Assembly: GCA_045612805.1 (NCBI GenBank)
Contig: JAZKZR010000008.1
Location: forward strand, 6,276 to 70,275
DNA from: Candidatus Enterousia sp.
Lineage (GTDB): Bacteria; Pseudomonadota; Alphaproteobacteria; Rs-D84
Reading direction: 5' to 3'
Length of the DNA stretch: 64,000 nt
Below, piece by piece: positions 13,458-39,478 of this stretch. Under the pieces are notes generated by a model, which had not been told where the DNA came from, searched no databases, and was given only the letters and a program-made list of their open reading frames with translations. The translations under genes were made by a program, and so were the position numbers. The first letter of the stretch is position 1. The number at the start of each line of letters is the position of its first letter.

Positions 13458-13485
13458 AAAAATCGCCAAATGGCGATTTTTTTTA
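13456..13485 (+). terminator. rho-independent terminator of rpmH
   Basis: aatcgccaaatggcgatt hairpin followed by a T8 run. Confidence 0.75.
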
Positions 13486-13591
13486 GTGGTTAGTGTTAGT
13501 GGCTGGTGGTTAGTGATAGCAAACAACAAAAACCGCCGGATTTCCGGCGGTTCACTAACTACTAACACTGGCCACTTAAACTAACCACTAA
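13483..13591. repeat. composite repeat copy B: TTAGTGG heptads as imperfect inverted arms around a GC hairpin
   Basis: ttagtggttagtgttagtggctggtggttagtg ... aaaccgccggatttccggcggtt ... cactaactactaacactggccacttaaactaaccactaa. The right arm supplies the last codons and the TAG stop of the 13581 gene. Confidence 0.7.
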
Positions 13592-14597: not shown

Positions 14598-14637
14598 AAT
14601 TAGTGGTTAGTGTTAGTGGTTAGTGTTAGTGGGCGGT
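14598..14637. repeat. TTAGTGG heptad repeat block (copy C)
   Basis: ttagtggttagtgttagtggttagtgttagtggg between rpmE and the flavodoxin-like gene. Confidence 0.65.
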
Positions 14638-15223: not shown

Positions 15224-16519
15224 TTATTTTTTTAGGTTTTTCCACCATTTCCCAAGTGTTGCGCGGGTTAAATCGAAATCTTTTTTCGCCGTCACATAGA
15301 ATTTATCGGATATTTTGACATTGAATAATGTCTTTACCAGATTCGGTATCGATGTCATAAACACCGCAAAAAACGCCCCAAGCATTATGATGGACAACAG
15401 TCCCCCGTCCCGCAACATAAGGCCATCCATAAGAATTTGCGAATCGCCACTGGAAATTGCCGCCGCGATTCGGGATATTCCCCCAATGTGTCCCACAATC
15501 GCGTCTAAAAATGACAGACCAAACACCAAAAACACGACCGTCATGGCGATTCCGACCGTTCCGGTTATAACATCGTCTATCATGCCTTGGATATTTTTGC
15601 CACCCTTTGGAAAGATTTTATCCCACCCCTTAAACAGCCACGACAGCAACATCAGCGGCAACATAACCATATCCAGCGCAAGCGTCACGAATATTTCAAG
15701 AAAATAAAGCGGTATCGGCAAAAGTGCCATAAAATACAACGCCAAAACAAGAAGGCCTGCAAAAAATATCGGAACATTTGGGAAAATCGGAATATCCCAC
15801 ATAATTTTATGCATATATTCGGCGTTAAATGCCATATTCAACATTGTCCACCCAACCGTCATCCCAAGACCGGTCACTTGGTGCACATTGGCCAGTTCAC
15901 AGGTCAGACCACTGCGCAATTTTACCGGGAACGCCCCCGCCGGCATATTTCCGTTTGCCAATGATGTGCGATTCGCGTTTTCATCCAAAAGCGCCGTCGC
16001 CACCATACATTCGGAAAACTTTTCGGTGTCACCGATTATATGATTCACCGATAAACCAAGATTGAAAATCGGTTCAATAACAACGCCACTTATTAAACGT
16101 GGCAACGGAAATACCAACAACGCACTTACTATCGCCAATCGGATTAAATGCGTTCCAAAATTCGATGCCGTTGTCCAACCACTTTCAACCTTGCCGTTCA
16201 TAAAGTTTGATGCAAGTGTCCATGTGAAATACACCGCCGTAAGCATCGCCGCAATTGGAATTATGACTTCGCCGATGCCGTAATAAATCGGTGGTAAAAT
16301 GTTTGAAAGTTTCGCCATGATGGAAGAAAACATTTCGCATGTCCAACACGAAGAAAAAAAACTAAGCGCATCTTGCATATCAACCGGTGCCGTACTGCGC
16401 CAGATTGAAAATCCCGCAATCGTTGCCGCGCCCGCCGCAAGCAGCCATGGCAATATCGCGCCCGCCGATAATGGAAAGAACGATAAAAATACAATAAAAA
16501 ATTTTTTTAACTTGCTCAT
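15224..16519 (-). CDS. polytopic membrane protein, paralog 1 of 5 (candidate VirB6/TrbL-like)
   Basis: Signal peptide/TM1, a CWTCEMF motif before TM2, about 7 TM with a ~100 aa central hydrophilic loop, and a Lys-rich C-terminus. Divergent from paralogs 2-5. TATAAT lies 7 nt upstream of the ATG. Confidence 0.7.
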   Translation of the reverse strand: MSKLKKFFIVFLSFFPLSAGAILPWLLAAGAATIAGFSIWRSTAPVDMQDALSFFSSCWTCEMFSSIMAKLSNILPPIYYGIGEVIIPIAAMLTAVYFTWTLASNFMNGKVESGWTTASNFGTHLIRLAIVSALLVFPLPRLISGVVIEPIFNLGLSVNHIIGDTEKFSECMVATALLDENANRTSLANGNMPAGAFPVKLRSGLTCELANVHQVTGLGMTVGWTMLNMAFNAEYMHKIMWDIPIFPNVPIFFAGLLVLALYFMALLPIPLYFLEIFVTLALDMVMLPLMLLSWLFKGWDKIFPKGGKNIQGMIDDVITGTVGIAMTVVFLVFGLSFLDAIVGHIGGISRIAAAISSGDSQILMDGLMLRDGGLLSIIMLGAFFAVFMTSIPNLVKTLFNVKISDKFYVTAKKDFDLTRATLGKWWKNLKK

Positions 16520-16583
16520 TTCATTTAATTATACCACAATTTTGCCAAGATGTGATATAAATCGAATTATAAATGTAGGAAGT
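16520..16583. promoter_or_regulatory. divergent promoter region of the membrane-protein array
   Basis: 64 bp AT-rich spacer between P1 (-) and P2 (+). ggtataat sits on the P1 side and gtaggaagt SD on the P2 side. Confidence 0.4.
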
Positions 16584-17867
16584 ATGTTTTTACATCGTTT
16601 GCTTTTTGCAAAATTTTTAAGGCGGATTATTGTGCCGGCGTTATTGGTCGCGGCCTTTGTCACGCCGGGCGCGGCATTTGCAAAGTGGGAAATTGTTGAT
16701 AAATTAAATCTTGCGCCGTTTGTGCCACGTGTATTGGATGCGTTTATGATGGTTGCGCGTGGCGGTTATGAATACTTTGTGGGTTCGGGTGACGGAATCA
16801 TTTATATTTTTGTTTGGGCGTTTTTGGCGATATCTATTTTTATGTACGCGTTCAAAATGTATTTTCCAAAACGGTGGTTGGAATTTTTCGGAATGTCCGG
16901 CGGTGGCGAAATGTGGGACGGCAATGTTAAAGGTTTCACGATGGTTGAAACGGTCCTTAAAAGTGGTGTTCGCGCAATTGTTGCCGCGGTGTTGCTGTTG
17001 CAGGTTAGGCCGATTTATGTCACACAATGGTTGGTGAATCCGTTCTTGGAATTTGGTGCAATTTATACATCAGCGATTACCGACCAGGCGAATATCACCG
17101 GAGTAAAAAAGCAAAACATCGAATGTCCTGAAAGTATTTTATCAAATGATTGGATAAGTAAAAAAAGTTGCAATTTTTTAATACAACCAATATCTGATTT
17201 GTCGGCGGTGAATAATGCGGTTGTTAAACGCGGGTTTGAATTTGTGTCGCGTGGAATTCGTGGGTTATTCACTATATTTTCACACGGCGGTCAAAACATA
17301 ATGGATATGATAACGGGCGTGTTGTTGATATTTACCTTTGTTGGATGCAATTTGTTTATGGCGTTGCTAATTATCCAAGGTATATTTGATTTTGGCGTTG
17401 CACTTATTCTTTATCCGTTTAATGTTTTGGCATGGGTTGCAAAGAAAAGTGACAAGTGGCTTGATATCTGGCCGGCGTTTGATGGAATTATTACGGCACT
17501 GCGCAAACTGGTTATCACGATGATTGCGTGCGCGTTTATTATGATTATAAATGTTGCGATTGTGCATGCGTTGTTTGGTTTGAATAACAGTGTATTTAAT
17601 GTTGTGGCGGGCGGAACCGCGACAAGTAATTTGGTCACGAACAGTGCGATTGGATTTGGTGGACATTCTATGCTGTGGCTATCGTCGATACTTACGTTCT
17701 TTTTAATGAATGCGATATTTGAAATGACCAAAGACCAACTAAACAAATATGCGCCGGGCATGACAGGCATGTACGAACAGGTCAAAGGTGATTTTAACGC
17801 GACAACGGCAAAGGCCAAGGGAACATATGAATCAATAAAAAAGATATTGGGGCTTATTAAAAAATGA
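16584..17867 (+). CDS. polytopic membrane protein, paralog 2 of 5
   Basis: Start moved to ATG 16584 (SD aggaag, signal peptide MFLHRLLFAKFLRRIIVPALLVAAFVTPGAAFA). The longer 16299 ORF would overlap P1. About 6-7 TM, C-terminal KKILGLIKK. Confidence 0.7.
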   Translation: MFLHRLLFAKFLRRIIVPALLVAAFVTPGAAFAKWEIVDKLNLAPFVPRVLDAFMMVARGGYEYFVGSGDGIIYIFVWAFLAISIFMYAFKMYFPKRWLEFFGMSGGGEMWDGNVKGFTMVETVLKSGVRAIVAAVLLLQVRPIYVTQWLVNPFLEFGAIYTSAITDQANITGVKKQNIECPESILSNDWISKKSCNFLIQPISDLSAVNNAVVKRGFEFVSRGIRGLFTIFSHGGQNIMDMITGVLLIFTFVGCNLFMALLIIQGIFDFGVALILYPFNVLAWVAKKSDKWLDIWPAFDGIITALRKLVITMIACAFIMIINVAIVHALFGLNNSVFNVVAGGTATSNLVTNSAIGFGGHSMLWLSSILTFFLMNAIFEMTKDQLNKYAPGMTGMYEQVKGDFNATTAKAKGTYESIKKILGLIKK

Positions 17868-19084
17868 ACGGGATATTGAACGGTTTTGTTGATACCGCGG
17901 TGCAATGTTGGGGGTGCGCTGTGTTTGATAACCTGTTCCGCGTTGTGTCAAATGCGGGTGCCGCCGTTTATAATAAAATCGCCGACATATGTTTTATACT
18001 GTTTGCGGTGCTGTTTGTGTTCTTTGTTGTGTGGGCGGTGTGGAAACATGTGAACCCGAAAAAGCCGGAAACAGGCGACCCGTTTTATATGAAATCGGTT
18101 GTGCGCGTTGTTATAAATTCACTGTTTGCACTAACATTACTTGGCGTTGGTGTTGGGTTTCCACGCTTTATAACACGCGTCACATTTGAACCGGTTGCCG
18201 ATGTGACGTTGATATACAGCCAGGCAATGTTGCAAACGACCCCGGCGGCGGTTGATGAACGCGTACCATATAAGTTAGAAAAAATGAACGATGATGGTTT
18301 TTTTAGACCTGCGCTGCGCAACACAATTATATCGATAATGAAAACAACCGTGACAATGTTTCAAGATTATATGAAACTTGGGATTGCGGTTATGGACGGT
18401 GCATTTTCATGGAAACATATTCATAACCTTGGCGATATATTCCGACATATTATTATGTTTTTTGTGGGGCTATATTTGTTCTATGGATTTTTCAAGTTGT
18501 TTATAAAATTTTGTTTTTATTTCGTAGATGTGATTGTAGATATGGCGATGTTTGCGTTTCTGTTTCCGATTGGACTTATGATGATGTCGTTTCGTGGTGG
18601 TGAAATGCCCGATTGGATGTCGTCATTGGGCAAAGGTCTTGGCACAAACCAACTAAAAAAACTTATTAGTGCGATTATAACACTTGCATCGGCGGTGATA
18701 ACATACATGGTAATCCTTGCGATTATATCACGGTATTTTTCTGATGCCGGCATGGATACCAACGAATTGATGAACTCAATTTTATCGGGCGAAGTTTTTG
18801 CATCTGATTTATCAGAAGAAAACCTTGCAAGTATTACATTGATTGGCGCAATAATTTTGGTGTATGTTTTGAATTATATATACAAGCAAATTCCAAATGT
18901 TTCAAAAATGGTACTTGGGGCATTTGGTGCAAGTGACGGCGAAAATAAACTAAGTGAACAAATGGCAAACGATGCAGAAAAATTAGTTGCGCTTGTTACA
19001 AACGGGATAAAAAATGTCGGCAACAAAATTATAAATAACGGTGAAAAGAAAGACGAAAAAACGGGTGACGAGAAAACTAAATGA
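17864..19084 (+). CDS. polytopic membrane protein, paralog 3 of 5
   Basis: ATGA overlap with P2. A CWGCAVFD motif before TM1 aligns with the CWTCEMF of P1. Lys/Glu-rich C-terminal tail. Confidence 0.7.
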   Translation: MNGILNGFVDTAVQCWGCAVFDNLFRVVSNAGAAVYNKIADICFILFAVLFVFFVVWAVWKHVNPKKPETGDPFYMKSVVRVVINSLFALTLLGVGVGFPRFITRVTFEPVADVTLIYSQAMLQTTPAAVDERVPYKLEKMNDDGFFRPALRNTIISIMKTTVTMFQDYMKLGIAVMDGAFSWKHIHNLGDIFRHIIMFFVGLYLFYGFFKLFIKFCFYFVDVIVDMAMFAFLFPIGLMMMSFRGGEMPDWMSSLGKGLGTNQLKKLISAIITLASAVITYMVILAIISRYFSDAGMDTNELMNSILSGEVFASDLSEENLASITLIGAIILVYVLNYIYKQIPNVSKMVLGAFGASDGENKLSEQMANDAEKLVALVTNGIKNVGNKIINNGEKKDEKTGDEKTK

Positions 19085-20538
19085 AAAAATTATTCCTTGG
19101 GTATCTTGTTCGATTCTTGTTCGGCGCAATCGCGTTGGGTGTTGGCGTTTGGTATGTAAGTTCATCGCTATCGGGTGCGTCATTGACATACACCAGTATG
19201 GATGGATTCTTGCGTTCAATCGGTGCGGGGGACGGAAATGTTGCGTCCACCAATGGTTGTTTCCTTTGCAAATATGTGAATGATTTGTTCTTTGTCCTGG
19301 GCGATGCGTCGGAATCTTTTTGGCATGCAATTGTTTCACACCTTTGGATTTTAATGGTGATTGGGTTTGGTGTTTTCCTGTTTATACACAGTGCGAAATA
19401 TATTTACAAGGCAATGATGGAAACAACAAAATTGGACACGGGTGAAAAGAAACTTGCGTTCGGTCCGTGGTTCGATGATGTTTGGAAAAATGGCGTGCGA
19501 ATTATGATTGTCGGTGCAATTATCGGTGCGTTTGGTATGGGTGGCATATCATCAATAAAGGCATTATCAAACATAACGATTCAACCGGTGATGTATGTCG
19601 GAACGGAACTGTCCATGGCGGCAATGGGCATATCAAGTTCCGCACAATGCGTGCCGGCGGAAATCGGTGCGGATAATCCGATGTCATCGGTTTCAAATTC
19701 ATTTATGTGTATTGTTGGGAATATCAACAGTGTTATGCTTGCGGGCGCGGCGGGCGGATTCGCACTGATGAATTACGCGTGGATGGGATTGGGTGGTGGC
19801 GCATTCACATGGATTGCGGGATTGTTGGTTGTGATTATGTTTGTGGTGATTGGGTTCAATTTGTTCTTTGAAATTTTGTCGGTGATATTCAAACTTGTTT
19901 TCCTTGTGATATTTTTACCATTACTTGCGGCGGCGGCGGCATTTGAAAAAACATGGAAAAAGGCATCGGGTGTTGTGAACGGTGCGGTAAAAATGTTGAT
20001 TGAATCCGCGATCAAGGTTGTTGCAATATCATTAAAGGTTGTGATTGTTTACGCGATGGTGTTCTTTGCCGCCGACGAATTTTTCCCCGGGCCGGTGGAT
20101 AAATATAGTGCGATATTCCCACCATTGTTGGTTGGTGAAGTAATGCCAACCGATGCCACCGCGTTGTCCATAAGAAATGTTTTTGCAACATGTGAATCGG
20201 CGGCAACGATAAACGGCACGGTGGATAAAGACGCATTCAAAAATTGCTTTAATTTGCATCGGGCACAAATCGAATCACGATATCCGGGCGCATTTGATTT
20301 TATGCGTGACGGTTTTGGATTTTTGCTATTGATGGCGGGGTTGATATTTATATATTTCTATGTTTTGGCGCCACGTGTTGATAAACTTATTGCAAGTGTG
20401 CCATCATTTGAACCGTTTGGAAAATCCGATGATAGTGGCGGCGGTGTTGATAATTTTGGCACAGATTTGAAAAAATTGGTCAAAATGACATGGAAAAAGC
20501 CACAAGAATTTGCGGATAAATTGATAAAGGAAAAATGA
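19081..20538 (+). CDS. polytopic membrane protein, paralog 4 of 5
   Basis: ATGA overlap with P3. N-terminal signal anchor, a GCFLCKY motif, and an Ala/Gly-rich double TM. Confidence 0.7.
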   Translation: MKKLFLGYLVRFLFGAIALGVGVWYVSSSLSGASLTYTSMDGFLRSIGAGDGNVASTNGCFLCKYVNDLFFVLGDASESFWHAIVSHLWILMVIGFGVFLFIHSAKYIYKAMMETTKLDTGEKKLAFGPWFDDVWKNGVRIMIVGAIIGAFGMGGISSIKALSNITIQPVMYVGTELSMAAMGISSSAQCVPAEIGADNPMSSVSNSFMCIVGNINSVMLAGAAGGFALMNYAWMGLGGGAFTWIAGLLVVIMFVVIGFNLFFEILSVIFKLVFLVIFLPLLAAAAAFEKTWKKASGVVNGAVKMLIESAIKVVAISLKVVIVYAMVFFAADEFFPGPVDKYSAIFPPLLVGEVMPTDATALSIRNVFATCESAATINGTVDKDAFKNCFNLHRAQIESRYPGAFDFMRDGFGFLLLMAGLIFIYFYVLAPRVDKLIASVPSFEPFGKSDDSGGGVDNFGTDLKKLVKMTWKKPQEFADKLIKEK

Positions 20539-21815
20539 AAAACATAATTAAAAAATTTTTATTGTTTGTTGTTTGTATCGCTTTTTGCGGTGTGGCGGTG
20601 GCGGCGGAATCTAATTTGGTGACCGGCGACATTGGCGATTTCGGTGCATGGACAACCGAACACAATCGCGAAGAACTTATTCAAACCGTGCAAAATGATT
20701 TGGATGGTTTTGAGTCAGGATTCGAACGCGAATATGTTGAAACCGGTGTTCCGATAGAGGCAAAACTTGGGATATCTTTTATGAGTGCATTGACATACAC
20801 GGCACATATTTTGGATGATTCGTTGGTGCGGTTTGTAAATATATTTTTGATTGTCGCTTTCATTTTTTGGGTTATGTTCGAAGCGTACCGAATGATTAAA
20901 GATTCCAAAGTCAAAGCGATGCCGACGGTCGAAGACATAATAAAAAAAGGTATCACACTTGCGATATGGTTGATAATTTTGGGAATCGGATTGCCACGAT
21001 TGTTTGGAATGATTATGGGGCCGATTGTTGCGTTTGGTTCGTATGTTGCGAATCTGATTTTGGATACGGTTGCGAAAATTGGTAATTTTGAACTTTCCGA
21101 CACATGCGCCGCAATTCAAAATTATGCCGCGACACATATGACAGACACATCAATTGTTGATGCAAAAACCGCCGCAGATATTATGTGTGTGCCAACGCGT
21201 ATGTCCGGGTTTTATTATGGTGCGATAAAGTTCGGTTGGAAAATGATGGGCGCGGGATTGGGGACCAGCACATTTACATTTTTAATGGGATTGGTGTTTG
21301 TTGTCTTGTTCATATACACCGCATTTAAGTTTGCATTTGTTGCGTTTGGTGTGATTGCGGATTTATTTTTAGTGATAATACTGTTGCCATTTACGGCGAT
21401 TGCGGAAACGGTTCAAAAGACATCGTACAAAGGTATCGCCGGCGATATATATAATGGGTTCCTTGGCATATTCAAAACTTCAAATCTTTCGTCCCAGGTT
21501 AAAAAGTTCATTGATGCGGCGATTTATTTTGTCGCGCTTGCAATTGTTGTTTCGATTGGTGGCGCGTTGCTTGGTGGGGCGGTTCAATTAAACACGCAAA
21601 CACATATTATTTCTATATTGGACGGCAATGTTATCACATTACTTATGACCGGTGCGTTGGTTGCGTATATTGCAACGCATGCGGATGAAATTGCAAAGTC
21701 AATTGGTGGTGGAATTGATGCGGGAATCGGAACAAACCTGCAAAAAGATTTGAAAACACTTTATACCGACACCAAGAAAAAGGCCGAAGAATTTATCAAG
21801 GCGTTAAAGAAATAA
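20535..21815 (+). CDS. polytopic membrane protein, paralog 5 of 5
   Basis: ATGA overlap with P4, SD aagga. Signal peptide MKNIIKKFLLFVVCIAFCGVAVAA. The stop is 4 bp from the convergent uvrD stop. Confidence 0.7.
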   Translation: MKNIIKKFLLFVVCIAFCGVAVAAESNLVTGDIGDFGAWTTEHNREELIQTVQNDLDGFESGFEREYVETGVPIEAKLGISFMSALTYTAHILDDSLVRFVNIFLIVAFIFWVMFEAYRMIKDSKVKAMPTVEDIIKKGITLAIWLIILGIGLPRLFGMIMGPIVAFGSYVANLILDTVAKIGNFELSDTCAAIQNYAATHMTDTSIVDAKTAADIMCVPTRMSGFYYGAIKFGWKMMGAGLGTSTFTFLMGLVFVVLFIYTAFKFAFVAFGVIADLFLVIILLPFTAIAETVQKTSYKGIAGDIYNGFLGIFKTSNLSSQVKKFIDAAIYFVALAIVVSIGGALLGGAVQLNTQTHIISILDGNVITLLMTGALVAYIATHADEIAKSIGGGIDAGIGTNLQKDLKTLYTDTKKKAEEFIKALKK

Positions 21816-21819
21816 AAAT

Positions 21820-23901
21820 CTAATCGATAATTTTTACAAAACTTTCGGCAACTTTTTTAATTCCTGTGCGATTAAATGCAACCGTCAAAATTCCGCCGTT
21901 TGATTCAATAACAACACCACGCCCAAGTTCACCGTGTTCAACCAATTTTCCAACAATACTTTTAACCGTATGTGTTTTCTGTTGCGTTGGTCGTGCGGGC
22001 GTTTCATACCGCGGTGTACGTCCACCAAAGTCCAAATACCGATTATCCATTTCGGTTATGAATCGCGCCGGCGAATAGTATTGACGCGCACCGAAAATAA
22101 CACGTGACATTGTGTTTGTGATAATCGCACGCCGCCGCGCGCGTGTCAGGGCGACATAGGCCAAGCGGCGTTCTTCTTCCATTCCGCCTTCTTTGATTGA
22201 TTTATCATTTGGGAAAATTCCATCTTCCCATGCGGGCAAAAACACCGTATCAAATTCCAAACCTTTGGCGGCGTGAATCGTCATTATATTTACCGCCTGG
22301 GTATTATCGGCGATTTCATTATCGTTATCATCGGTTGTCATCAATGCCGCGTGTTCCAAAAAGTCCGGCAAACTGTCGTATGTTGAAATAACATTTGTAA
22401 TTAAATCACGAATGTTTGAAATTCTTTCTTCGGCGTCGGGGTCTTTGGATTCGCGCCAGTATTGCATATATTTTGCATCTTCAAGTAATTTTTTCACCGC
22501 ATCCGCCGGGCGCATAGATTGCCATTCAAAATCAAACACAGATAAAAATTCATTGGCGGCGATTCCTTGCTTGCCCCCAAAATTTGCCGCGCGCAATCCG
22601 GCCATCAGTGAACCGCCCGCCGCGCGCATTTTTGCAATTGCCGTTGGACCAAATCCGCGGCGCGGTCGCGCAATCACGCGGGCGAACGAAACATCATCTT
22701 CCGCATGCACCAACAAACGCACATATGCGATAACATCGCGAATTTCCATACGGTCATAGAACTTGGTTGTTCCAATCAACCGATACGGAATACGCGCATT
22801 TGCGAATTCTTCTTCGAATCCGCGCGAAAGTGAACCCGTGCGAATCAAAACCGCAAAATTCGAATAATTGCCATTTGCATATCGCAAAATTGTGTCGGCA
22901 ATCAGTTTTACTTCGTCATAATTTGATGGCACCGTTAGGACATAGACCGGTTCGCCAACGCTTTTTTCATCCGCCGGGCGCAGGTCTTTGCCCAATCGCC
23001 CGTTGTTGTGTCGTATCAATGAATTCGCCGCGCCAAGTATGTTTCCGGTACTGCGGTAATTTGTTTCAAGGCGTATGATTTGCGCGCCCGGAAAATTTTT
23101 TTCAAATTCCAAAATGTTTTTTATTTCCGCCCCGCGCCAAGAATAAATCGATTGGTCATCATCGCCCACGCAACACACATTAGGTTTTTCCACATCACGC
23201 GTTAGCAATTTTATAAACTGCATTTGCGCATTATTTGTATCTTGGAATTCATCGACCATAATGTATTTGAATTGCCGGGCGTATTTTTCGCGCACATCCG
23301 GCGCAGATTCAAACAATTTCAGAACAAGCAAAATAATATCGCCAAAATCAACCGCACCCAATCGCCGCAATTCCGCATTGTAATCACTTAGGATTTTTTT
23401 CGTGCGCGCACCGATGTCGGGGCTTTCGATATTTCCGCGGTCTTTGATATTTGAAATTTTTTCGACCCAATCGCCGGCATCGTATTCCTTGGCGTCCGCA
23501 CCCATCGCGGCAAAGACATTTTTCAAAACCGCCTTTTGGTCATCTTCGCCAAAGATTATAAAATCCGACTTTAACCCCGCGCGCGCGGCGTTCGCCCGCA
23601 AAATACGCAGACATATTGAATGAAATGTTCCGCACCATAAATCGCGCGCATAAAAATTGCCGCCGCCCGCGTTTAAAATTTCCGCGATGCGATTTTTCAT
23701 CTCGTTTGCGGCCTTGTTCGTAAAGGTCAGTGCCAAAATTTGCCACGGCAACGCCAAATTCATATTTAATATGTGCGCAACCCGCATAACCAGCACGCGC
23801 GTTTTTCCCGTTCCCGCACCCGACAGCACCAAAACCGGCCCCGCGGTTGTTTCGACCGCTTTCTTTTGTTCGGGGTTAAGATTTTCTAGATTTACATTCA
23901 T
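21820..23901 (-). CDS. uvrD: ATP-dependent DNA helicase, UvrD/Rep family
   Basis: Walker A GAGTGKT, motif II DEFQDTN, and the VALTRAR motif VI region. Confidence 0.88.
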   Translation of the reverse strand: MNVNLENLNPEQKKAVETTAGPVLVLSGAGTGKTRVLVMRVAHILNMNLALPWQILALTFTNKAANEMKNRIAEILNAGGGNFYARDLWCGTFHSICLRILRANAARAGLKSDFIIFGEDDQKAVLKNVFAAMGADAKEYDAGDWVEKISNIKDRGNIESPDIGARTKKILSDYNAELRRLGAVDFGDIILLVLKLFESAPDVREKYARQFKYIMVDEFQDTNNAQMQFIKLLTRDVEKPNVCCVGDDDQSIYSWRGAEIKNILEFEKNFPGAQIIRLETNYRSTGNILGAANSLIRHNNGRLGKDLRPADEKSVGEPVYVLTVPSNYDEVKLIADTILRYANGNYSNFAVLIRTGSLSRGFEEEFANARIPYRLIGTTKFYDRMEIRDVIAYVRLLVHAEDDVSFARVIARPRRGFGPTAIAKMRAAGGSLMAGLRAANFGGKQGIAANEFLSVFDFEWQSMRPADAVKKLLEDAKYMQYWRESKDPDAEERISNIRDLITNVISTYDSLPDFLEHAALMTTDDNDNEIADNTQAVNIMTIHAAKGLEFDTVFLPAWEDGIFPNDKSIKEGGMEEERRLAYVALTRARRRAIITNTMSRVIFGARQYYSPARFITEMDNRYLDFGGRTPRYETPARPTQQKTHTVKSIVGKLVEHGELGRGVVIESNGGILTVAFNRTGIKKVAESFVKIID

Positions 23902-23947
23902 TGTTTTATTATAATTGGCCTATGGATAATAAAACTATGGTGGAATT

Positions 23948-24625
23948 ATGGCAAGGGTAATTTGTTTTGATATTGAAACGACCGGATTCGAATACCTGCG
24001 CGGCGACCGGTGCATCGAAATCGGCGCGGTGGAAATTGTGGATGGAAAAATCACCGATAAAACTTTTCACGAATACATAAATCCCGAAGGTAAAATTATT
24101 CCGCCGGAAACATATATGGTTCATAAAATTTCAAACGCGTTTTTGGATGACAAACCGAAAATGTCCGTTGTTGCACCAAAGTTTTTGGAATTTGTTGGTG
24201 ATTCAACAATTGTTGCACATAACGGATTGGACTTTGACTTTCCGTTTGTGAATCACGAATTGGAAATGTTGCACTTGCCGCCGATTCCGCGTTCGCAAAT
24301 GGCGGACACATTGGTCATCGCGCGCAATCGTGTGTTTGGTCCAAAAAGTTATACACTGGACGCACTTGCGAAATGGTTTGGAATATCACTGACCGCGCGT
24401 GCTGATGCACACGGGGCGTTGATTGACTCTGAAATTTTGGCCAAGGTTTATTTGGAACTTGAAAACACCGCGCCCGCGCCGGAAATTTCGGAAATTGTCG
24501 CGAAACAGCACGAGGCATTTTTGAAACACCCAAAAATTGGTGCGAATTTTCCATACCGTCAATTCCCGGTGTCAGATGCCGAACAAAAAATCCACGACGA
24601 ATTCATGGCAAAGTTGGGGGAATAA
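23948..24625 (+). CDS. dnaQ: DNA polymerase III epsilon subunit (3'-5' exonuclease)
   Basis: Exo motifs FDIETTG, VAHNGLDFDFPF and HGALIDSEIL. Confidence 0.88.
   Translation: MARVICFDIETTGFEYLRGDRCIEIGAVEIVDGKITDKTFHEYINPEGKIIPPETYMVHKISNAFLDDKPKMSVVAPKFLEFVGDSTIVAHNGLDFDFPFVNHELEMLHLPPIPRSQMADTLVIARNRVFGPKSYTLDALAKWFGISLTARADAHGALIDSEILAKVYLELENTAPAPEISEIVAKQHEAFLKHPKIGANFPYRQFPVSDAEQKIHDEFMAKLGE
24585..24625 (+). repeat. direct repeat copy 1 (native 3' end of dnaQ: aaaaaatccacgacgaattcatggcaaagttgggggaataa)
   Basis: Matched by two further near-identical copies at 25261 and 26241. Confidence 0.8.
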
Positions 24626-24629
24626 AATG

Positions 24630-24658
24630 TTGTCAAACACCACAATTTATAATAAAAT
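24630..24658 (+). promoter_or_regulatory. promoter of the cassette-1 lipoprotein gene (TTGTCA-17-TAAAAT)
   Basis: Hexamers with a 17 bp spacer immediately after the dnaQ stop. Confidence 0.5.
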
Positions 24659-24684
24659 TATAATGCTATAAAAAAGGAGAAAAA

Positions 24685-25056
24685 ATGAAACCGCTATATG
24701 TTTTATCAATTTTATTGGGGTTGTGTGCTTGTGACAAAATAAACTTTCACGAAACAGATATAGAATGTTTGAATGTAACTTGTGTAGAGGAAGAATGCGA
24801 CAGTGTTTGGGACAAGTATAAGTCGCTTGATGTAGATTCCGAAAAAGCGGTGTTAAGAACAGATGACCGAACAATAGTGTTTAAACTATATACACAGGAT
24901 GCGACGGAAGAAACACCGGCGGTTTATGCAGATTTTCAAATCTATAAAAATGAAAACGATGAACAACCAATGTTCCTGCATTTTGTAGACAATGATACCT
25001 ATTCATTGGGAACAGATTTAAATCATTGGTCACAATGTCGTAAAGCGCGCAAATAA
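24685..25056 (+). CDS. hypothetical lipoprotein (123 aa)
   Basis: Lipobox LLGLCAC after the signal peptide; SD aaaggag. Confidence 0.6.
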   Translation: MKPLYVLSILLGLCACDKINFHETDIECLNVTCVEEECDSVWDKYKSLDVDSEKAVLRTDDRTIVFKLYTQDATEETPAVYADFQIYKNENDEQPMFLHFVDNDTYSLGTDLNHWSQCRKARK

Positions 25057-25086
25057 TTACTATTGGTAAATACATTAAAGAAGAAT

Positions 25087-25185
25087 TGTCATTGCGGCGT
25101 AGGCCGCAATAGGGCTAGGCATTTGTGACGAATATTTCGTAATAGTAAAATGTTTTTTGTCATTCTGAACTTGTTTCAGAACCCT
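25087..25185. repeat. two tandem GTCATT-hairpin elements
   Basis: gtcattgcggc-gtag-gccgcaat and gtcattctgaa-cttgtt-tcagaa. These belong to the same hairpin family seen inside the composite repeats. Confidence 0.55.
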
Positions 25186-25260
25186 ATGGCGGACCAGAAT
25201 CACCCAAAAAATGCTTTGCATTTTTTGGGGCCCGATGCCCGCCATGACAAAAAAACAACA

Positions 25261-25300
25261 AAAAACCCACGACGAATTCATGGCAAAGTTGGGGGAATAA
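25261..25300 (+). repeat. direct repeat copy 2 of the dnaQ 3' terminal 40-mer
   Basis: aaaaacccacgacgaattcatggcaaagttgggggaataa (1 mismatch to copy 1). Confidence 0.8.
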
Positions 25301-25301
25301 T

Positions 25302-26201
25302 TTATCCCATTACGGTCATCATTACACCAATACTAATCATGATAAAACATAATATTTTTTTTATCATGATTTGGCGTGATATATCTTCGTGAAAACGTTT
25401 GCCAAATAATTTTGCAAGAATGATTCCATATACGGCAACAAAAATTGGTTGAACTGATTGAATTCCCGAATCCACAATAATCGGTATCAATGCCAGTGCG
25501 AACACAAGGCTTAATGAAGCCAACCTGTCAAAACATTCCATCAATACAAACATGCCGAATTTTTTACGATATGCGCCGAAACTTTTTATGATATCTTGAC
25601 GAACGGGGCGAATAAATAACATTGTAAATTGTCCAATGAAAGATGTCACCATAACCCAAAATGCCACCGATACCCAGTTAGTATTTTCTAACAAGACCTT
25701 GTAAAAACTCCCTTCAAACGACAACATTATACTGGCCAAGCACATTAACCAAAAACCAGAATTTATCTTGATACGATTTTCATGGGTTAGATTCAAAAAC
25801 ACAGAAAACAATATTATTATACCAAAACCTATATATTGAATGGGATGTAAAGTTTCGCCAACTATTAAAAAAGCCCATAACGGAACAAAAACTTTTTCCA
25901 TTTGAAATAATGCGGCCACCACAGATGTATCAAGTTTATTCAATGCAGCAAAATATGGAAATTGATATCCAATCTGTATGATTGATAACAGACCAACGAA
26001 TAACCATGCTTCCAACGGCAATGAATGAATTTGGCCAAACAGTGGCAAACACAAAATCCCCAATATATTTGTCAAATTCATGTAAAAAATGGTTGTTGGC
26101 ACCCGCTTAAAAACACTACCCAATACATAGGAATCAAATATATTGGATACAGCCCACATCATAGGCCCAATAAAAGCAACCAAAATTCCAAACAAATTCA
26201 T
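25302..26201 (-). CDS. EamA/DMT-superfamily transporter (10 TM)
   Basis: 299 aa, two internally repeated 5-TM halves typical of the drug/metabolite transporter family. Confidence 0.7.
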   Translation of the reverse strand: MNLFGILVAFIGPMMWAVSNIFDSYVLGSVFKRVPTTIFYMNLTNILGILCLPLFGQIHSLPLEAWLFVGLLSIIQIGYQFPYFAALNKLDTSVVAALFQMEKVFVPLWAFLIVGETLHPIQYIGFGIIILFSVFLNLTHENRIKINSGFWLMCLASIMLSFEGSFYKVLLENTNWVSVAFWVMVTSFIGQFTMLFIRPVRQDIIKSFGAYRKKFGMFVLMECFDRLASLSLVFALALIPIIVDSGIQSVQPIFVAVYGIILAKLFGKRFHEDISRQIMIKKILCFIMISIGVMMTVMG

Positions 26202-26240
26202 AACATGGGAATTATATCATAAAACGGTTGGAGTGTAACA

Positions 26241-26280
26241 AAAAATCCACGACGAATTCATGGCAAAATTGGGGGAATAA
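26241..26280 (+). repeat. direct repeat copy 3 of the dnaQ 3' terminal 40-mer
   Basis: aaaaatccacgacgaattcatggcaaaattgggggaataa (1 mismatch). Confidence 0.8.
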
Positions 26281-26295
26281 AGGAATTAAAGTGTT

Positions 26296-27534
26296 TTAAC
26301 GGGCTTTGATGCTAAATTGACCAGTTAACATATTGATACACACATAATCGCCTTTTTTTATTTTTTCAAACTCAGCACGGCGGCCCCAAGTTTCCAAAAC
26401 TGTAAAATCAAGATTTTCACGCAACATATTACCATGATGCCCATATAGGCCATCGAATGGGGAATTTGACCAATCAAAATCAAACTTGAATTGCACCCCA
26501 ACAGAATTTTTGGTAAAAACATATACAGATTCACCAGATTTCCAAATATTTATATCATTATATTCTTGTGTTGGTACGGGCCTTATACTATCTATGAAAC
26601 CGACATAACCTTCTATAATTGGTTTGTCCAATGAAAATACGGATTTAGTGCTTGCATCTATATCGCGTCCATAAAATTCAGGCAAACAATATGGACGCTG
26701 TTGCACTATATTTATTTTATTATCTTTTGACACAACAAATTCCATATCCACAGGATAACCTAAATCTGGTTCCAATTCTGAACACAAAGCAGAAATTAAA
26801 AAATGATTTCGGTATGTTTCACGGTCCTGTGCGTAAACCCTTTGTGGTGAACCAGTAAAAGAGTTAGGATAAAACATCATATTATATTCTAAATTATCGA
26901 TACTGGACAAATTAAACCTGATCATCTTGTGGTTTTTATCAGAAATGGGTTTGGCTGTGGCAAATCTATGAAAATTAGAAAAATTTTTATCAGATAACAA
27001 TTTATCTGCAAAATCATTTTGAACATAATTCATTACGATAAAAGGTGCACCCAAAAATGTTTCAGAATACACAACGCCGGCCATTTGCGACGTTGGAACC
27101 ATTGATTGTAATATAACACCCATTTTGGCATTTGGCACATTTGCCGCAGATGCATAAACAGTATTTAGTGCCTTGGCCATATGTTCGCGTGTTCTTACAT
27201 TTAAAACACTTTCAAATTGACCCGAAAAAGTTTTCCCTTTTTTATCTTCTATATCCGCAGAAGAACGCACAGCGATATTGCCACCCAATCTGTCCATATA
27301 AAGCATCGCCGAATCTATTAAATCTTCTTGGATATACCCTTGTTTTTTATAATCATTAAACCTTGATACCGGAATCACAAATGTGTCTGGGACAATGAAA
27401 CCCGTTTTGTATTGCGCGTTATACTTTTCAATCAGTGTTTTTAATTGATAAAGCCCTGCAAATTTGCCGCCACCAATACTACTTGCGGTATGGGCGTTTA
27501 CATTTTCTAACGAAATGATTGTGTTATCTGTCAT
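26296..27534 (-). CDS. stand-alone PEP-utilising-enzyme N-terminal (PPDK_N, ATP-grasp-like) domain protein
   Basis: IGGGKFAGLYQL nucleotide-binding loop, RSSADIEDKKGKTFSGQFESVLNV, and DMEFVVSKDNKINIVQQRP match the ATP-binding domain of PEP synthase / PPDK / rifampicin phosphotransferase. No His swivel domain or PEP/pyruvate domain is present. Confidence 0.6.
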   Translation of the reverse strand: MTDNTIISLENVNAHTASSIGGGKFAGLYQLKTLIEKYNAQYKTGFIVPDTFVIPVSRFNDYKKQGYIQEDLIDSAMLYMDRLGGNIAVRSSADIEDKKGKTFSGQFESVLNVRTREHMAKALNTVYASAANVPNAKMGVILQSMVPTSQMAGVVYSETFLGAPFIVMNYVQNDFADKLLSDKNFSNFHRFATAKPISDKNHKMIRFNLSSIDNLEYNMMFYPNSFTGSPQRVYAQDRETYRNHFLISALCSELEPDLGYPVDMEFVVSKDNKINIVQQRPYCLPEFYGRDIDASTKSVFSLDKPIIEGYVGFIDSIRPVPTQEYNDINIWKSGESVYVFTKNSVGVQFKFDFDWSNSPFDGLYGHHGNMLRENLDFTVLETWGRRAEFEKIKKGDYVCINMLTGQFSIKAR

Positions 27535-27585
27535 TTTATATTTTCGGCACCAAACTTATTAAACATCGCCCGAATGGGCGGTGGA

Positions 27586-29970
27586 TTATAATTGTGCTTT
27601 TATTTCTTGGACTTCGTAACATTCAACGCGGTCGCCTTCTTTGATATCGTTATACTTATCAAAACTCATACCGAATTCGACACCGCCGGAAACCTCTTTA
27701 ACCTCGTTCTTTTCGCGGCGCAGTTCGCCGATTTTTCCATCGTACACCACAACATTGTCGCGCAGCAATCGCACAAACGCGTCTTTTTTAATCACGCCTT
27801 CGGTCATACGGCAACCCGCAACACGAATACCCTTGCCGACCGTGAACAGTGCGATAACATCGGCATAGCCAATAAAGTTTTCTTTCTTTTCCGGCGCAAG
27901 TTTTCCGGACAAAATTTCTTTGATTTCATCGGTGATACGATACACGACACTGTGATAACGAATATCAACATTTGCCGCGCGCGCCATATCACGCACCGCC
28001 GCATCCGCACGAACATTAAATGCGATTATGACCGCGCCCGACGCGGACGCAAGGCGCACATCGCCTTCGGTAATTTGACCAACCCCGGACGACAGAATTT
28101 CAACCGACGCCTTGTCCGTTTTAATATCACGCAACATGTCGTTTATCGCCTCTACACTACCCTGGACATCGGCACGCAAAACAATTGGCAAAGTCAATTT
28201 TTTATCGCCCGTTTGTTTTGCAAACAGTTCTTCGAGTGACGAACGTTTCATCGCGTTTGCACGGTCACGCGCGCGCTGTATGCGCCATGCCGCAACTTCA
28301 CGTGTTTGCGCTTCGGTTTCCATAACGTTCAACATATCGCCCGCCAATGGCACCGCATCAAGCCCCAATACCATAACGGGCTGTGCCGGTTTGACCATTT
28401 TCACGCGTTCGCCATTTGACATAACCAGGCCCCTTACGCGACCAAATGTTTCGCCGACAACAAACACGTCACCAATCTTTAATGTTCCTTCACGAATTAT
28501 AACCGTTGCAACCGCGCCCAGGCCCCGTTCCATTTTCGCCTCTACCACCGTGGCGACCGCCGGCATATCCGGGTCCGCGCGCAGGTCCATCATTTCGGCT
28601 TGCAATAAAATTGCGTCTTCCAATTTATCAAGCCCGATTTTTTGTTTTGCGGAAATTTCAACGCATTGAACGTCGCCGCCCATTTCTTCGACCTGGACTT
28701 CCTGTTGCAGCAAATCCGTTTTGACCTTTTGCGGGTTGGCTTCGGGTAAATCGATTTTGTTTATTGCGACAATAAACGGAACTTTGGCCGCACGAATATG
28801 ATTTATGGCCTCTATCGTTTGTGGCATAATCGAATCATTTGCCGCAACGACCAAGACCACAATATCCGCCATTTGCGCACCACGCGCACGCATCGCGGTA
28901 AATGTTTCATGTCCCGGCGTATCAAGGAAAGTTATGACCGCACCGGATTTTGTTTTAACCTCGTACGAAGAAATGTGTTGGGTTATGCCGCCCGCTTCGC
29001 CCGCAACAACGTTTGCATTGCGGAACGCATCAAGCAATGATGTTTTACCATGGTCAACATGTCCGACAACCGTCACAATCGGCGCGCGCGGTTTAAGGTT
29101 TTCCGGATTCGGCGCACGTTCCAACAAATCGGCGTATGGTTTAACCTCTACACGTTTTACGGTTGCACCAAATTCGCCGGCGATAATTTCCGCCGTGTCC
29201 GCATCAATAGATTGATTTTGGGAAACCATCATTCCCATTTCCATCAGTTTTTTGATAACGTTGCCAACCTTTTCCGCCATCGCCGCCGCCAAATCTTTGA
29301 CGACAATTGTGTCACCGATAACGACTTCGTGTGCGACCTTTTGCGGTGCATTGAACATCGCACGCGCCTTTTCGCGGAAACGTTTAAGTGACGCTTCGGA
29401 CCGGCGGCGATTTGCCCCACGCAGGCCGATTTCATCGTCATCATCGTCATTACCAATAACAATATCACGCAACGATATTTTCCCACCGCGTGCAAAGTCA
29501 CGCTTGCCACCAGATTTTTGATTCCGGCGCGTGGGCATGTTATCGTCATCATCTGATTTGTTTTGCCGATGTGCGGGATTTTTCTGGCCAAAATTGCGTG
29601 GAACGGCGACCGGTTCCGGATCTTCTTCGGTATTTTGCATCGCATTTTCACGCGCAGCAAGTTGCTCTTTGACCTGTTCATATTCGCGGGTTTCGCGGGC
29701 AATTTCTGCCTCACGCGCGGCACGGGCCGCGGCTTCTTCCGCTTCGCGTTGTTTGCGTTCTTCTTCGCGGGCACGTGCGGCCTCTAAGACCGCGCGCAAT
29801 TTTTCATCCGCCGGATTATTCTTTGTTGCGGTTGGCGCGACCGGTTCTTCGCGCAATTCGTTACTGCCCGGTGCAACAACACGGCGACGGCGTTCCACGA
29901 AAACAGAATCGCCCTTTTTGCTTTGCACCGCCCCCAAAGTCACAGATTTTCCAAGTGTCAGTGTCGCCAT
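27586..29970 (-). CDS. infB: translation initiation factor IF-2
   Basis: GTPase [20 protein letters not shown] and NKID motifs, with a charged, repetitive N-terminal region. Confidence 0.95.
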
Positions 29971-31671: not shown

Positions 31672-31850
31672 TTTTTTAGTGGTTAGTGGGGGGGAGTTGA
31701 TGGTTGGCAACGCCGTCATTCCGGCGAAAGCCGGGATCCCGTCGGATATGTCGCAATCCAATTCTCTGCAACATTGGTAGAGAAAAGATACCGGCCTGCG
31801 CCGGTATGACGTCAATGACACTTACACTAATCACTAACACTAATAATATA
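31672..31850. repeat. composite repeat copy D (heptads + GTCATTCC hairpin + GATACCGG hairpin + inverted heptads)
   Basis: ttagtggttagtggggg ... gtcattccggcgaaagccgggatcc ... gataccggcctgcgccggtatgacgtca ... cactaatcactaacactaa. Confidence 0.7.
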
Positions 31851-36878: not shown

Positions 36879-36924
36879 TAGGGACATATCGGGGAGAGAG
36901 CAGGATTTATAAAAAGGAGAAAAC

Positions 36925-37701
36925 ATGAACATAGAATATATAACCTGCAGTGGTATCGGTCCACATAACGATATATCAGAAATTATCAATCTTGGTAAAA
37001 ATTATGAAAATGCAGAATTTGCGGTTCAGGTAAGTCGTGAAAAATTTTTCCCATATAATGATAGGTATAATTTCTTTCGAACATTGGTTGCCACATGCAC
37101 CGTGAATGACGTGAATCTTGCAATGCATGTGAATCTTGAATATAGGACAGATTTGTGTCGCGGAATTGTCCCGGAATTTTTTCAAGATTTATGGAGTATC
37201 AAGCGTCAAAAAGGAACACAGAATGCGGACAAACCTGTTATCGGTCGGGTTCAAATAAATATAAACGGCGGAAATGATAAATTTACGTTTTATGCCGATA
37301 AAGTCGCAGACATAATTCGCGCATACCCGGGTATTAAATTTATTTTTCAATATGCGCCGGAACAATACGAGCGCATTTCGAAACTTGATAAAAGACATGT
37401 ATCATTTGCGTTATTGTATGATGCATCAGGTGGACGTGGTATTTCCCCAGAAATGTGGGATGCACCGGTTTTTCAGAATCATCAAATGGGATACAGTGGG
37501 GGTATGTCGCCGGATAATGTTGTTAATAACTTAAATGATATAAACGAAATTTTACCCATGGATTATTCGACCTGGATTGATGCCGAAGGAAAATTAAAAA
37601 GTCCCGATGATAATGGCAAAAAACTGTTCGATACGACACTCGCCGAAAAATATATTAAAAACGCATGCGCATGGCAGATGAAAAACGGGTATAATCGGTA
37701 A
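36925..37701 (+). CDS. TIM-barrel protein resembling phosphoribosylanthranilate isomerase (TrpF-like)
   Basis: FALLYDASGGRGISPEMWD...GYSGGMSPDNV follows the TrpF pattern (LLD..GGsG..fdW...laGGl.p.NV). AT-rich relative to neighbours. Confidence 0.45.
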   Translation: MNIEYITCSGIGPHNDISEIINLGKNYENAEFAVQVSREKFFPYNDRYNFFRTLVATCTVNDVNLAMHVNLEYRTDLCRGIVPEFFQDLWSIKRQKGTQNADKPVIGRVQININGGNDKFTFYADKVADIIRAYPGIKFIFQYAPEQYERISKLDKRHVSFALLYDASGGRGISPEMWDAPVFQNHQMGYSGGMSPDNVVNNLNDINEILPMDYSTWIDAEGKLKSPDDNGKKLFDTTLAEKYIKNACAWQMKNGYNR

Positions 37702-37704
37702 AAA

Positions 37705-37733
37705 ATATCGCCGAATTTCGGCGATGTTTTTAT
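37705..37733. terminator. bidirectional terminator between the TrpF-like and ACP-like genes
   Basis: atcgccgaa-tt-tcggcgat hairpin followed by gttttta. Confidence 0.65.
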
Positions 37734-38080
37734 TAATATCTTTCTTTTGTTTTGCTATATAACCCGTCACGAAGTAATGATTTTTTTTGATTGATTTGTT
37801 TAATCTGGGTTTGAACATTCATGTTATTATACAAAAAATCTATAATATCGTTCACGGTTATATTCGATTTGGTTGTTAAACCATCCTTGGGGTCACAATT
37901 CATTTCGGTACCAAATTCGTGTTCCAAATGTTCCCAAAGGTTGTACCAATCGAATGAATCTAGGGCCAACAGAATATCGCCATTATTCTTGGATTTAACA
38001 CTAATAATATCGCAAGCATACAACGCGTTATTCAGTTTATTTTGAATTTCTGGCCGGGTCCAGTTTTTATTTTTCATCAC
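37733..38080 (-). CDS. acyl/peptidyl carrier protein-like protein
   Basis: LALDSFDWYNLWEHLEHEFGTEM aligns with the ACP helix II ([21 protein letters not shown]), with Ser in DSF. Confidence 0.5.
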   Translation of the reverse strand: MMKNKNWTRPEIQNKLNNALYACDIISVKSKNNGDILLALDSFDWYNLWEHLEHEFGTEMNCDPKDGLTTKSNITVNDIIDFLYNNMNVQTQIKQINQKKSLLRDGLYSKTKERY

Positions 38081-39383: not shown

Positions 39384-39478
39384 GATCTCTAATCTGCCCG
39401 TCTCTGTGTGCTTCGCACACTCCGCCGCGGCACAGGATTTTCTTAATTGTGCGCGCTGCGCGCAATAATGAAAATCCG

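Follow-up and report, generated by a model that had tools for sequence, protein, structure and literature searches.

What has placed three copies of the 3′ end of one core gene in a single short region, and how did the genes that lie between these copies arrive there? The question is raised by the region between dnaQ and infB in a 64,000-nt stretch of DNA (positions 6,276 to 70,275 of contig JAZKZR010000008.1, assembly GCA_045612805.1). The whole stretch is called the window here, and all positions refer to it. The host is an uncultured alphaproteobacterium of rumen and gut, "Candidatus Enterousia", a genus of the order Rs-D84 with genomes smaller than 1 Mb (PMC12306168). On balance, we consider it probable, with no great confidence, that the dnaQ-infB region is a recombination hot spot, at which homologous or short-homology recombination of the host shuffles units that carry the repeat.

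The direct repeat is 44 nt long (AACAAAAAAYCCACGACGAATTCATGGCAAARTTGGGGGAATAA), and its three copies, r1, r2 and r3, all lie on the plus strand (Table 1). A 41-mer of the dnaQ end matched the window exactly three times, at 24585-24625 (no mismatch), 25260-25300 (one mismatch) and 26240-26280 (one mismatch), and it did not match any of 100 dinucleotide-preserving shuffles. The identity reaches 3 nt further to the left, which yields the 44-nt unit. The preliminary description of this DNA had reported three copies of the dnaQ end in the same orientation, two of them with a single mismatch, and this was confirmed and extended by the longer repeat. The first copy is the true 3′ end of the DnaQ-like gene, including the stop codon. 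The encoded protein matched the NCBIfam model dnaQ_proteo with an E-value of 3.7e-52 and 177 bits, which is under the cut-off of that model. The right boundary of the 44-mer is the dnaQ stop codon and the left boundary is AACAAAAAA. The copies in the window differ by T>C and G>A exchanges, and non-coding copies are 91-100% identical to the dnaQ end. The idea that the repeat belongs to a dispersed element unrelated to dnaQ was not borne out, as it was found at the dnaQ-infB locus only; all four matches of the 44-mer pattern in JGI metagenome contigs were at this locus. A self-BLAST of all loci revealed gene-end duplications solely in the dnaQ cases, besides intergenic repeats resembling repetitive extragenic palindromic (REP) elements or miniature inverted-repeat transposable elements (MITEs). 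In L054 and L081, such REP/MITE-like repeats flank rpmA-rplU.

Three variable units lie to the right of the three copies. Two cassettes had been described before, and the contents assigned to them held: the first interval contains a gene of 123 aa with a lipoprotein-type signal peptide and the TTGTCA-17-TAAAAT site, and the second contains an EamA/DMT transporter gene of 299 aa on the opposite strand. The PPDK_N-like gene behind the third copy had been overlooked, and it falls inside the same variable low-GC block as cassettes 1 and 2. The block from 24626 to 27585, i.e., to the infB stop codon, has a GC content of 35.3% compared to a mean of 44.8% for the window, and is its lowest-GC stretch. 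As read from their sequences, each of the units appears to be a complete small transcription unit. The units have sizes of 0.6-1.9 kb, contain single genes and are devoid of mobility-gene remnants. The cassette products are orphan lipoproteins or secreted proteins, the DMT transporter and the ATP-grasp-like protein. The EamA, PPDK_N-like and lipoprotein genes are mutually unrelated; among the lipoprotein genes, long and short forms occur, which are paralogues of one family.

The locus was then compared between strains. Contigs were collected that encode an identical DnaQ, an identical EamA or an identical lipoprotein, together with GTDB species representatives and metagenome contigs with the repeat pattern, and the comparison set consisted of 36 contigs of the clade with dnaQ and infB as convergent neighbours. 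The preliminary description had proposed to look for empty and occupied dnaQ loci in relatives, and both were found. The interval between dnaQ and infB ranged from 28 nt to 3,318 nt and contained zero to four units and one to three repeat copies in about 17 architectures. L018, the DnaQ of which is 97% identical, represents the empty site: 28 nt separate the dnaQ and infB stop codons, and they harbour a bidirectional terminator hairpin only. The identical DnaQ protein is encoded on at least 22 metagenome contigs, and strains that share it carried one, two or three copies of the 44-mer and different cassettes.

The architectures can be written with Q for dnaQ, r for the repeat, dR for a partial repeat (AACAAAAA(A)CC), T1 and T2 for two infB-adjacent sequence types and PPDK for the PPDK_N-like gene. 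They include Q r EamA dR T1 (L004, L098 and L102), Q r lipoS dR T1 (L015), Q r PPDK T1 (L011 and L092), Q r EamA r lipoL dR T1 (L001-3), Q r EamA r lipoS T2 (L020), Q r 190aa r EamA dR T1 (L096), Q r EamA r (165aa+372aa) dR T1 (L101), Q r EamA r lipoL r PPDK T1 (L016), Q r lipoS+243aa r EamA r PPDK T1 (L095 and L097), Q r 190aa r EamA r lipoL T2 (L005/6/8/9) and, for the window itself, Q r lipoS r EamA r PPDK T1. One and the same cassette was thus found alone, first, second or last, depending on the strain. The order of the lipoprotein and EamA genes is reversed between the window (lipoprotein-EamA-PPDK) and L016 (EamA-lipoprotein-PPDK); the lipoprotein cassette follows EamA in L001 and L016 and stands alone in L015. 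The PPDK_N-like unit is the only unit after dnaQ in L011 and L092 and is the last one in L016 and L095. L093 has a plain dnaQ-lipoprotein-infB layout with no downstream repeat.

All of these sequences are metagenome assemblies or metagenome-assembled genomes from mixed populations, and assemblers might have joined strain variants at a short repeat. Such an artefact is scarcely conceivable as the source of the arrays. The same multi-repeat architectures were recovered from independent samples and by different assemblers (L005/6/8/9, L001/2/3 and L095/L097/L100), which argues against assembly chimeras, and most contig records name a final k-mer (k141) that exceeds the 44 nt of the repeat.

Comparison of nucleotide identities showed that cassettes and flanks do not always share one history. 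In L020, the identities to the window were 86.8% for uvrD, 91.0% for dnaQ and 93.1% for infB, compared to 98.4% for EamA, and the L020 EamA gene was up to 99.4% identical to those of other strains. The EamA cassette is 98-99.9% identical across strains, the diverged L020 lineage included. The EamA gene of L020 is far closer than its flanks, and therefore it arrived recently by horizontal transfer. Its first repeat is a hybrid, with lineage-specific bases at positions 19-20 followed by main-group sequence, and the right half of its second repeat is lineage-specific and adjoins the lineage's own lipoprotein gene. Both features indicate that the exchange occurred inside the repeat. Different results were obtained for L021, in which the values for uvrD, dnaQ, infB and EamA were 87%, 92%, 88% and 87%. 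Its EamA gene lies at the same place, 1 nt from the dnaQ stop codon, and is followed by a MYG1-like gene, with no repeat, and it looks like a vertically inherited resident. The same applies to the EamA gene of L004 (about 97%) and to the PPDK_N-like gene of L092 (88-89% identical to the main group, with 92-93% for dnaQ), which also look like residents, as does the lipoprotein gene of L093. Around EamA homologues of other Enterousia species (40-81% identity) no flanking direct repeats were found, and the contexts were unrelated. Mosaic haplotypes of EamA occur within the clade: a mid-gene haplotype block and three right-end variants were found in all six combinations. To judge from these haplotypes, homologous recombination is clearly active at the locus.

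These results also bear on a local origin of the array, which the preliminary description had named as a competing reading. Tandem duplication of the dnaQ end together with a neighbouring gene, followed by divergence in place, would not involve any movement between strains. It would agree with the paralogous lipoprotein genes and with the observation that the plus-strand units share a 60-nt 5′-UTR and a tail of about 200 nt around different open reading frames (ORFs). Nevertheless, it is very unlikely, as the EamA, PPDK_N-like and lipoprotein genes are not related to each other, and order and number of the units vary among strains with identical DnaQ, as exemplified by the swapped order in the window and L016. 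In addition, EamA crossed into a lineage that is diverged by about 10%, and it is 98-99% identical across a boundary at which the flanks are only 87-93% identical.

Every unit begins directly after the TAA of a repeat, and at least six unrelated sequences begin there. The internal units all end at AACAAAAAA, with which the next repeat begins. A full repeat at the array end was not found in any complete array. Instead, four different last units (EamA variants a and c, the lipoprotein tail and the second unit of L101) abut AACAAAAA(A)CC, which is joined directly to the infB hairpin CCGCCCGAATGGGCGG. Read on the plus strand, this partial repeat is AACAAAAAACC, the same 9 to 11 nt as the start of the repeat. 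Even this partial repeat is missing in the PPDK_N-like unit and the T2-type lipoprotein unit, and they are always last. The strains L004, L015, L011 and L098, with a single cassette, have one full repeat each. Campbell integration into an intact attB would predict a full repeat on both sides of every insert, which does not agree with the single-cassette strains and with the terminal cassettes that abut AACAAAAA(A)CC and the infB hairpin.

Where cassette 3 is missing, TTTTTTGTT follows the infB hairpin on the minus strand, and the two together are a standard intrinsic terminator. The partial repeat is a terminator T-tract (ACCGCCCATTCGGGCGGT+TTTTTGTT), as is the left end of the repeat (CCATGAATTCGTCGTGG+ATTTTTTGTT), and at the repeat's left edge as well as at the right end of the array, the sequence is the end of a minus-strand T-tract. 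The two sites share AACAAAAAA(Y)C, and the length of the A-run differs among junctions. In other strains, the partial repeat beside the infB terminator has a C at position 10, like r2, in which it could also be a point mutation.

On the minus strand, the 44-mer itself can form a weak hairpin (CCATGA-ATTCG-TCGTGG), which is followed by ATTTTTTGTT and is a terminator-like match; the predicted RNA fold has -6.8 kcal/mol and a z-score of -1.7. The folds of the separators are weak (-5.2 and -6.8 kcal/mol, z-scores of -0.7 and -1.7). For minus-strand cassettes, the repeat is located just past the stop codons (15 nt in the case of the PPDK_N-like gene and r3), where a terminator is expected. Because of this terminator-like character, the 44-mer may be retained as the terminator of the minus-strand cassettes, EamA and PPDK_N-like, which lie directly upstream of it.

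Several joints between units do not contain the repeat at all, i.e., the joint of the lipoprotein tail and the 243-aa gene (L095 and L017), of the 189-aa gene and a lipoprotein gene (L007) and of EamA and the MYG1-like gene (L021). Therefore, the repeat is not obligatory for gene gain at this locus. Other segments are common to different units as well: EamA and the 243-aa gene share a promoter segment of 26 nt, and a 113-nt palindrome (TTTTTTGTCAT...ATGACAAAAAAA) forms the tail of the lipoprotein and the 190-aa cassettes. A shorter variant of the palindrome without the inner hairpin is present in L016 and L017. The palindrome resembles a MITE, a REP element or a bidirectional terminator. Between the -10 box of EamA and the next repeat (26202-26236 in the window; also L001 and L096), the variants AGTCCAAACGC, CGGTTGGAGTGT and TAATTTGGACGT occupy 12-15 nt. 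They look unrelated, but two of them share one 7-mer in opposite orientations (GTCCAAA/TTTGGAC).

Serial site-specific insertion into an attachment site (attB) at the dnaQ end had been the original interpretation. It is correct in that independent, strain-variable units have been gained and lost at the dnaQ 3′ end, whereas a site-specific mechanism is no more than a possible part of it. In this scenario, the 44-mer is the attachment (att) site, and single-gene cassettes lacking an integrase form circles and are inserted at the dnaQ 3′ end by a tyrosine or serine recombinase acting in trans, the gene of which lies at another place in the genome or on a helper element. It would resemble the accretion of cis-mobilizable elements or an integron-like system whose attachment sequence is fixed. 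We regard it as a possible explanation, albeit not a probable one. It would account for sharp repeat boundaries that are the same for every cassette, for single-nucleotide precision at the stop codon, for the conservation of the non-coding repeat copies, for the empty site in L018 and for the shuffled order of the cassettes. The exchange points in L020 are inside the repeat near position 19-21, i.e., within a 7-nt stretch between the arms of a short inverted pair, CCAYG...CATGG, that can be read directly from the sequence. However, arms of 5 nt are statistically not notable. The left 27 nt of the non-coding copies are less variable than the right 17 nt, which would also be in favour of this scenario. 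When the linkage of single-nucleotide polymorphisms along the 44-mer was examined for a fixed crossover point, few sites were informative, and signs of gene conversion were seen.

An additional case, which would agree with recombination by the host as well as with site-specific integration, came from a different Enterousia species (L076:1926-2350, DnaQ 79% identical), in which a 330-nt insert is enclosed by two copies of this species' dnaQ 3′ end. The duplicated end comprises 44 nt at 98% identity and about 57 nt in all, its boundaries differ from those of the repeat in the window, and it is an independent case. The insert has GC-rich terminal inverted repeats of about 45 nt and a DUF559-like ORF fragment, which was recognized by eye only, without a family search. 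The displaced, different original end is kept downstream, with another C-terminus (KLLNSEK*) and its terminator, and this is the classic look of a gene end supplied by an attP.

In contrast, the searches for the machinery and for mobile carriers of site-specific integration were negative. The preliminary description had noted that no integrase lies nearby, and this was substantiated over a wider range. No Pfam family of tyrosine or serine recombinases was detected in the approximately 40 ORFs of the window, which was the range screened for serine recombinases, and none appeared in the Pfam lists that had been precomputed for ten contigs (±10 kb). A phmmer search (--max) with E. coli XerD against 5,564 ORFs, from the window and from ±10 kb around dnaQ in 80 species, did not reveal a XerD-like tyrosine recombinase; the sole match was a degenerate integrase-like protein at an unrelated locus (L105). 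The 44-mer pattern had no match in IMG/VR, relatives of the EamA, PPDK_N-like and lipoprotein proteins were not found in viral contigs, and the array DNA did not match plasmid and phage collections. Among the cassette proteins, no mobile-element families were detected with Pfam, and the cassettes do not contain remnants of integration or transfer modules. Furthermore, single-cassette strains with one full repeat and a terminal partial copy of 11 nt joined to a terminator are not predicted by an attL/attR arrangement, and in relatives, the cassettes occur as resident genes with a vertical level of divergence.

Recombination by the host, which we favour, would generate these arrays in the following way. 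Initially, a unit between dnaQ and the infB terminator would have a AACAAAAAA tract on each side. Short-homology recombination or slippage between such tracts, within or between strains, could join the array end of one strain to the dnaQ end plus cassette of another, with infB or dnaQ as a long homologous anchor, and an internal copy of the dnaQ end would result. As soon as at least two 44-nt copies are present, homologous recombination could delete, insert and reorder units, using the repeats, the common cassette segments and the dnaQ and infB flanks as substrates and probably acting on DNA taken up from other strains. A dedicated recombinase would not be required. The observed end state comprises arrays of zero to four units in varied orders and cassettes that have crossed lineage boundaries. 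The left boundary of the repeat would be explained by recombination at AACAAAAAA, and the same mechanism would explain the missing terminal repeat, the invariable last position of units without the A-tract and the variation of the A-run at the junctions. It possibly also explains the "mismatch" in r2, as the C at position 10 is the terminator-type base.

Several points weigh against this explanation. Recombination at a homology of 9 to 44 nt would be inefficient, and none of the steps was observed directly. The exact start of at least six sequences after the dnaQ stop codon is a precision more typical of a site-specific system, although selection for an intact dnaQ and an adjacent terminator in a very compact interval could be an alternative source of it. 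The 91-100% identity of the non-coding copies could mean that they are a recognition site and need not reflect recency or gene conversion. The inspected 64 kb are part of a genome of about 0.9 Mb, and a recombinase in trans is possible. The window encodes RecR and a ComF-family protein (60079-60822; DZR_2 and phosphoribosyltransferase domains), which speaks for recombination by the host, but this competence-type gene is the only hint of a DNA-uptake machinery in the 64 kb. Finally, the proposed role of the repeat as a terminator depends on a weak hairpin (z-score of -1.7).

The array was compared with several known systems. With integrons it shares single-gene cassettes that are stacked at one site and the number and order of which vary between strains. 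In contrast to integrons, no IntI was found at the array (Pfam, phmmer with XerD), the separator is one near-identical 44-mer that equals a gene end and not an imperfect palindrome of the attC type, and the cassettes are on both strands with their own promoter-like sites, whereas integron cassettes are mostly promoterless, have one orientation and are driven by Pc. The array was therefore rejected as an integron, in view of the missing IntI and attC and of promoters in both orientations. That cis-mobilizable elements (CIMEs) without an integrase accrete in tandem at a target gene's 3′ end is known from the literature on integrative and conjugative elements (ICEs) as well as integrative and mobilizable elements (IMEs) of Streptococcus (PMC5704250). 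There, as at dnaQ, direct repeats containing the 3′ end of the target gene flank integrase-less segments. However, a CIME is the decayed remainder, several kb long, of an ICE or IME, with full attL and attR sites from a known integrase, whereas the dnaQ array has no full attR at its end, no mobile-element remnants and no integrase that could be found.

The concept of minimal mobile elements is said to go back to Saunders and Snyder. In the minimal mobile elements of Neisseria and other integrase-free hot spots of horizontal gene transfer (PMC3787668), differing whole-gene cassettes are likewise found between the same conserved genes, no mobility genes are present, and the exchange occurs via homologous recombination of the flanks, to which the mosaic EamA haplotypes fit. 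Two properties of such elements were found at dnaQ, namely variable cassettes without mobility genes and a cassette identity that is decoupled from the identity of the flanks. The systems differ in that a Neisseria strain usually has one alternative cassette, with no internal copies of the end of a flanking gene, whereas the cassettes at dnaQ stack and are separated by a portable homology of 44 nt. Overall, the locus behaves like a minimal mobile element or recombination hot spot that stacks its cassettes in the manner of an integron or of CIME accretion.

In the tycheposon islands of Prochlorococcus, which like the dnaQ array are hypervariable islands at a fixed site of a streamlined genome, successive integrations push older ones inward and leave partial copies of the target-gene 3′ end behind (bioRxiv 10.1101/2020.12.28.424599). 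Tycheposons use tyrosine recombinases and tRNA targets, whereas the dnaQ array has a protein gene as its target and neither a recombinase nor a remnant of one was found, and the likeness would appear to be limited to the trail of partial target-gene copies. Homology-facilitated illegitimate recombination in transformable bacteria, reportedly described by de Vries and Wackernagel in 2002, is known as a rare laboratory event that gives single insertions. The process is also mentioned in PMC6382021. A long anchor (infB or dnaQ) combined with a join at a microhomology of 3-12 nt (AACAAAAAA) would give internal dnaQ-end copies of the kind seen here. We know of no description of a standing, reshuffling array that is based on one recurrent microhomology. 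Three further identities were rejected. A diversity-generating retroelement does not apply, as no reverse transcriptase domain was found in the window ORFs and the differences between the repeats are T>C and G>A and not adenine-specific. The array is not a tRNA-type att island, and it is not a defence island, as PADLOC had no matches for eight cassette proteins.

A cassette exchange of a non-integron type can also be envisaged, with the 44-nt core-gene end and its reverse-strand terminator as a portable attachment or homology handle, by which complete single-gene units are stacked, reordered and passed between diverged lineages, either without any recombinase or with one that acts in trans on the att site in a protein gene. 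We consider this rather unlikely.

Symbionts with reduced genomes are usually thought to be poor at gene exchange. Here, a bacterium with a genome of less than 1 Mb keeps one small locus at which strains and lineages exchange genes for surface, transport and enzyme functions, and a machinery of mobile elements is not visible. Should no more be needed for the shuffling than a 44-nt copy of a core-gene end and a shared terminator T-tract, this would be a minimal route to an accessory gene pool in streamlined genomes, and it would also explain some of the "att-like" gene-end repeats without an integrase. Repeated gene-end copies alone do not prove site-specific integration. In addition, strains of rumen Enterousia can readily be told apart by the dnaQ-infB locus.

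Table 1. Features of the dnaQ-infB region, with positions in the 64-kb window
Feature	Position	Strand	Remarks
DnaQ-like gene, 225 aa (DNA polymerase III epsilon family)	23948..24625	+	Left conserved flank; Pfam RNase_T 6e-30
Repeat r1	24582..24625	+	Last 44 nt of dnaQ including the TAA stop codon
Cassette 1	24626..25256	+	Promoter-like site, putative lipoprotein gene, palindromic 3′ tail
Promoter-like site TTGTCA-17-TAAAAT	24630-24658	+	Upstream of putative lipoprotein gene
Putative lipoprotein gene, 123 aa	24685-25056	+	Lipoprotein-type signal peptide MKPLYVLSILLGLCAC
Nested palindrome, 113 nt	25150-25262		dG -41 kcal/mol, z -5.9; extends 6 nt into r2
Repeat r2	25257..25300	+	C at repeat position 10
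Cassette 2	25301..26236	-	EamA/DMT transporter gene with its own promoter-like site
EamA/DMT transporter gene, 299 aa	25302-26201	-	Stop codon 1 nt from r2
Promoter-like site GTTACA-17-TATAAT	26239-26211	-	For EamA; -35 hexamer spans left edge of r3
Repeat r3	26237..26280	+	A at position 32
Cassette 3	26281..27563	-	PPDK_N-like gene
PPDK_N-like protein, 412 aa	26296-27534	-	Pfam PPDK_N 7.5e-20; PPDK_N (ATP-grasp, PEP/pyruvate-binding) domain only
infB terminator hairpin T1, GCCCGAATGGGCGG	27564..27585	-	RNA fold -13.9 kcal/mol
infB (IF-2)	27586..29970	-	Right conserved flank; synteny conserved

The PPDK_N-like protein of cassette 3 had weak partial matches only in NCBIfam, and a search for the exact protein in the contig index returned no record. 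A full-length pyruvate phosphate dikinase (PPDK_N, mobile domain and PEP-utilizers_C) is encoded at 53377-56223 of the window, and therefore the cassette protein of 412 aa is a separate accessory enzyme. An Rfam search of 23500-28000 of the window at E<=1, and of L017, L076 and L093, returned nothing. In L017 (10679-10990), a GC-rich, hairpin-rich element of about 310 nt directly follows the dnaQ stop codon and lies upstream of an alternative lipoprotein promoter.

Some observations were made elsewhere in the window. Short intergenic tandem runs of the TTAGTGG/TTAGTG type are located at 7066-7099, 13483-13516 and 14600-14637, and L035 has a similar run after its dnaQ stop codon. A gene for a zeta-toxin/AAA-like protein is present at 62302-62970. 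The region with the second lowest GC content (about 36.5%) is 36900-38600; it contains ORFs without a Pfam match and is located beside the genes for tRNA-Tyr and tRNA-Gly (39297-39553). A search for a repeated tRNA 3′ end at the low-GC stretch of 37-38.5 kb beside tRNA-Tyr was negative. A family of hairpins (AAGATACCGSC...GSCGGTATGACG) is found at gene ends, at 7169-7207, 31785-31814, 39829-39855 and 50650-50688, and its members may be REP-like terminators. Lastly, no Pfam matches were obtained for five ORFs in 15224-21815, one of 431 aa on the minus strand and four in succession on the plus strand (522, 406, 485 and 426 aa). Among strains with identical DnaQ, the lengths of the first two of the five range over 325-431 aa and 411-523 aa, and the region may be a second variable region, encoding surface proteins.

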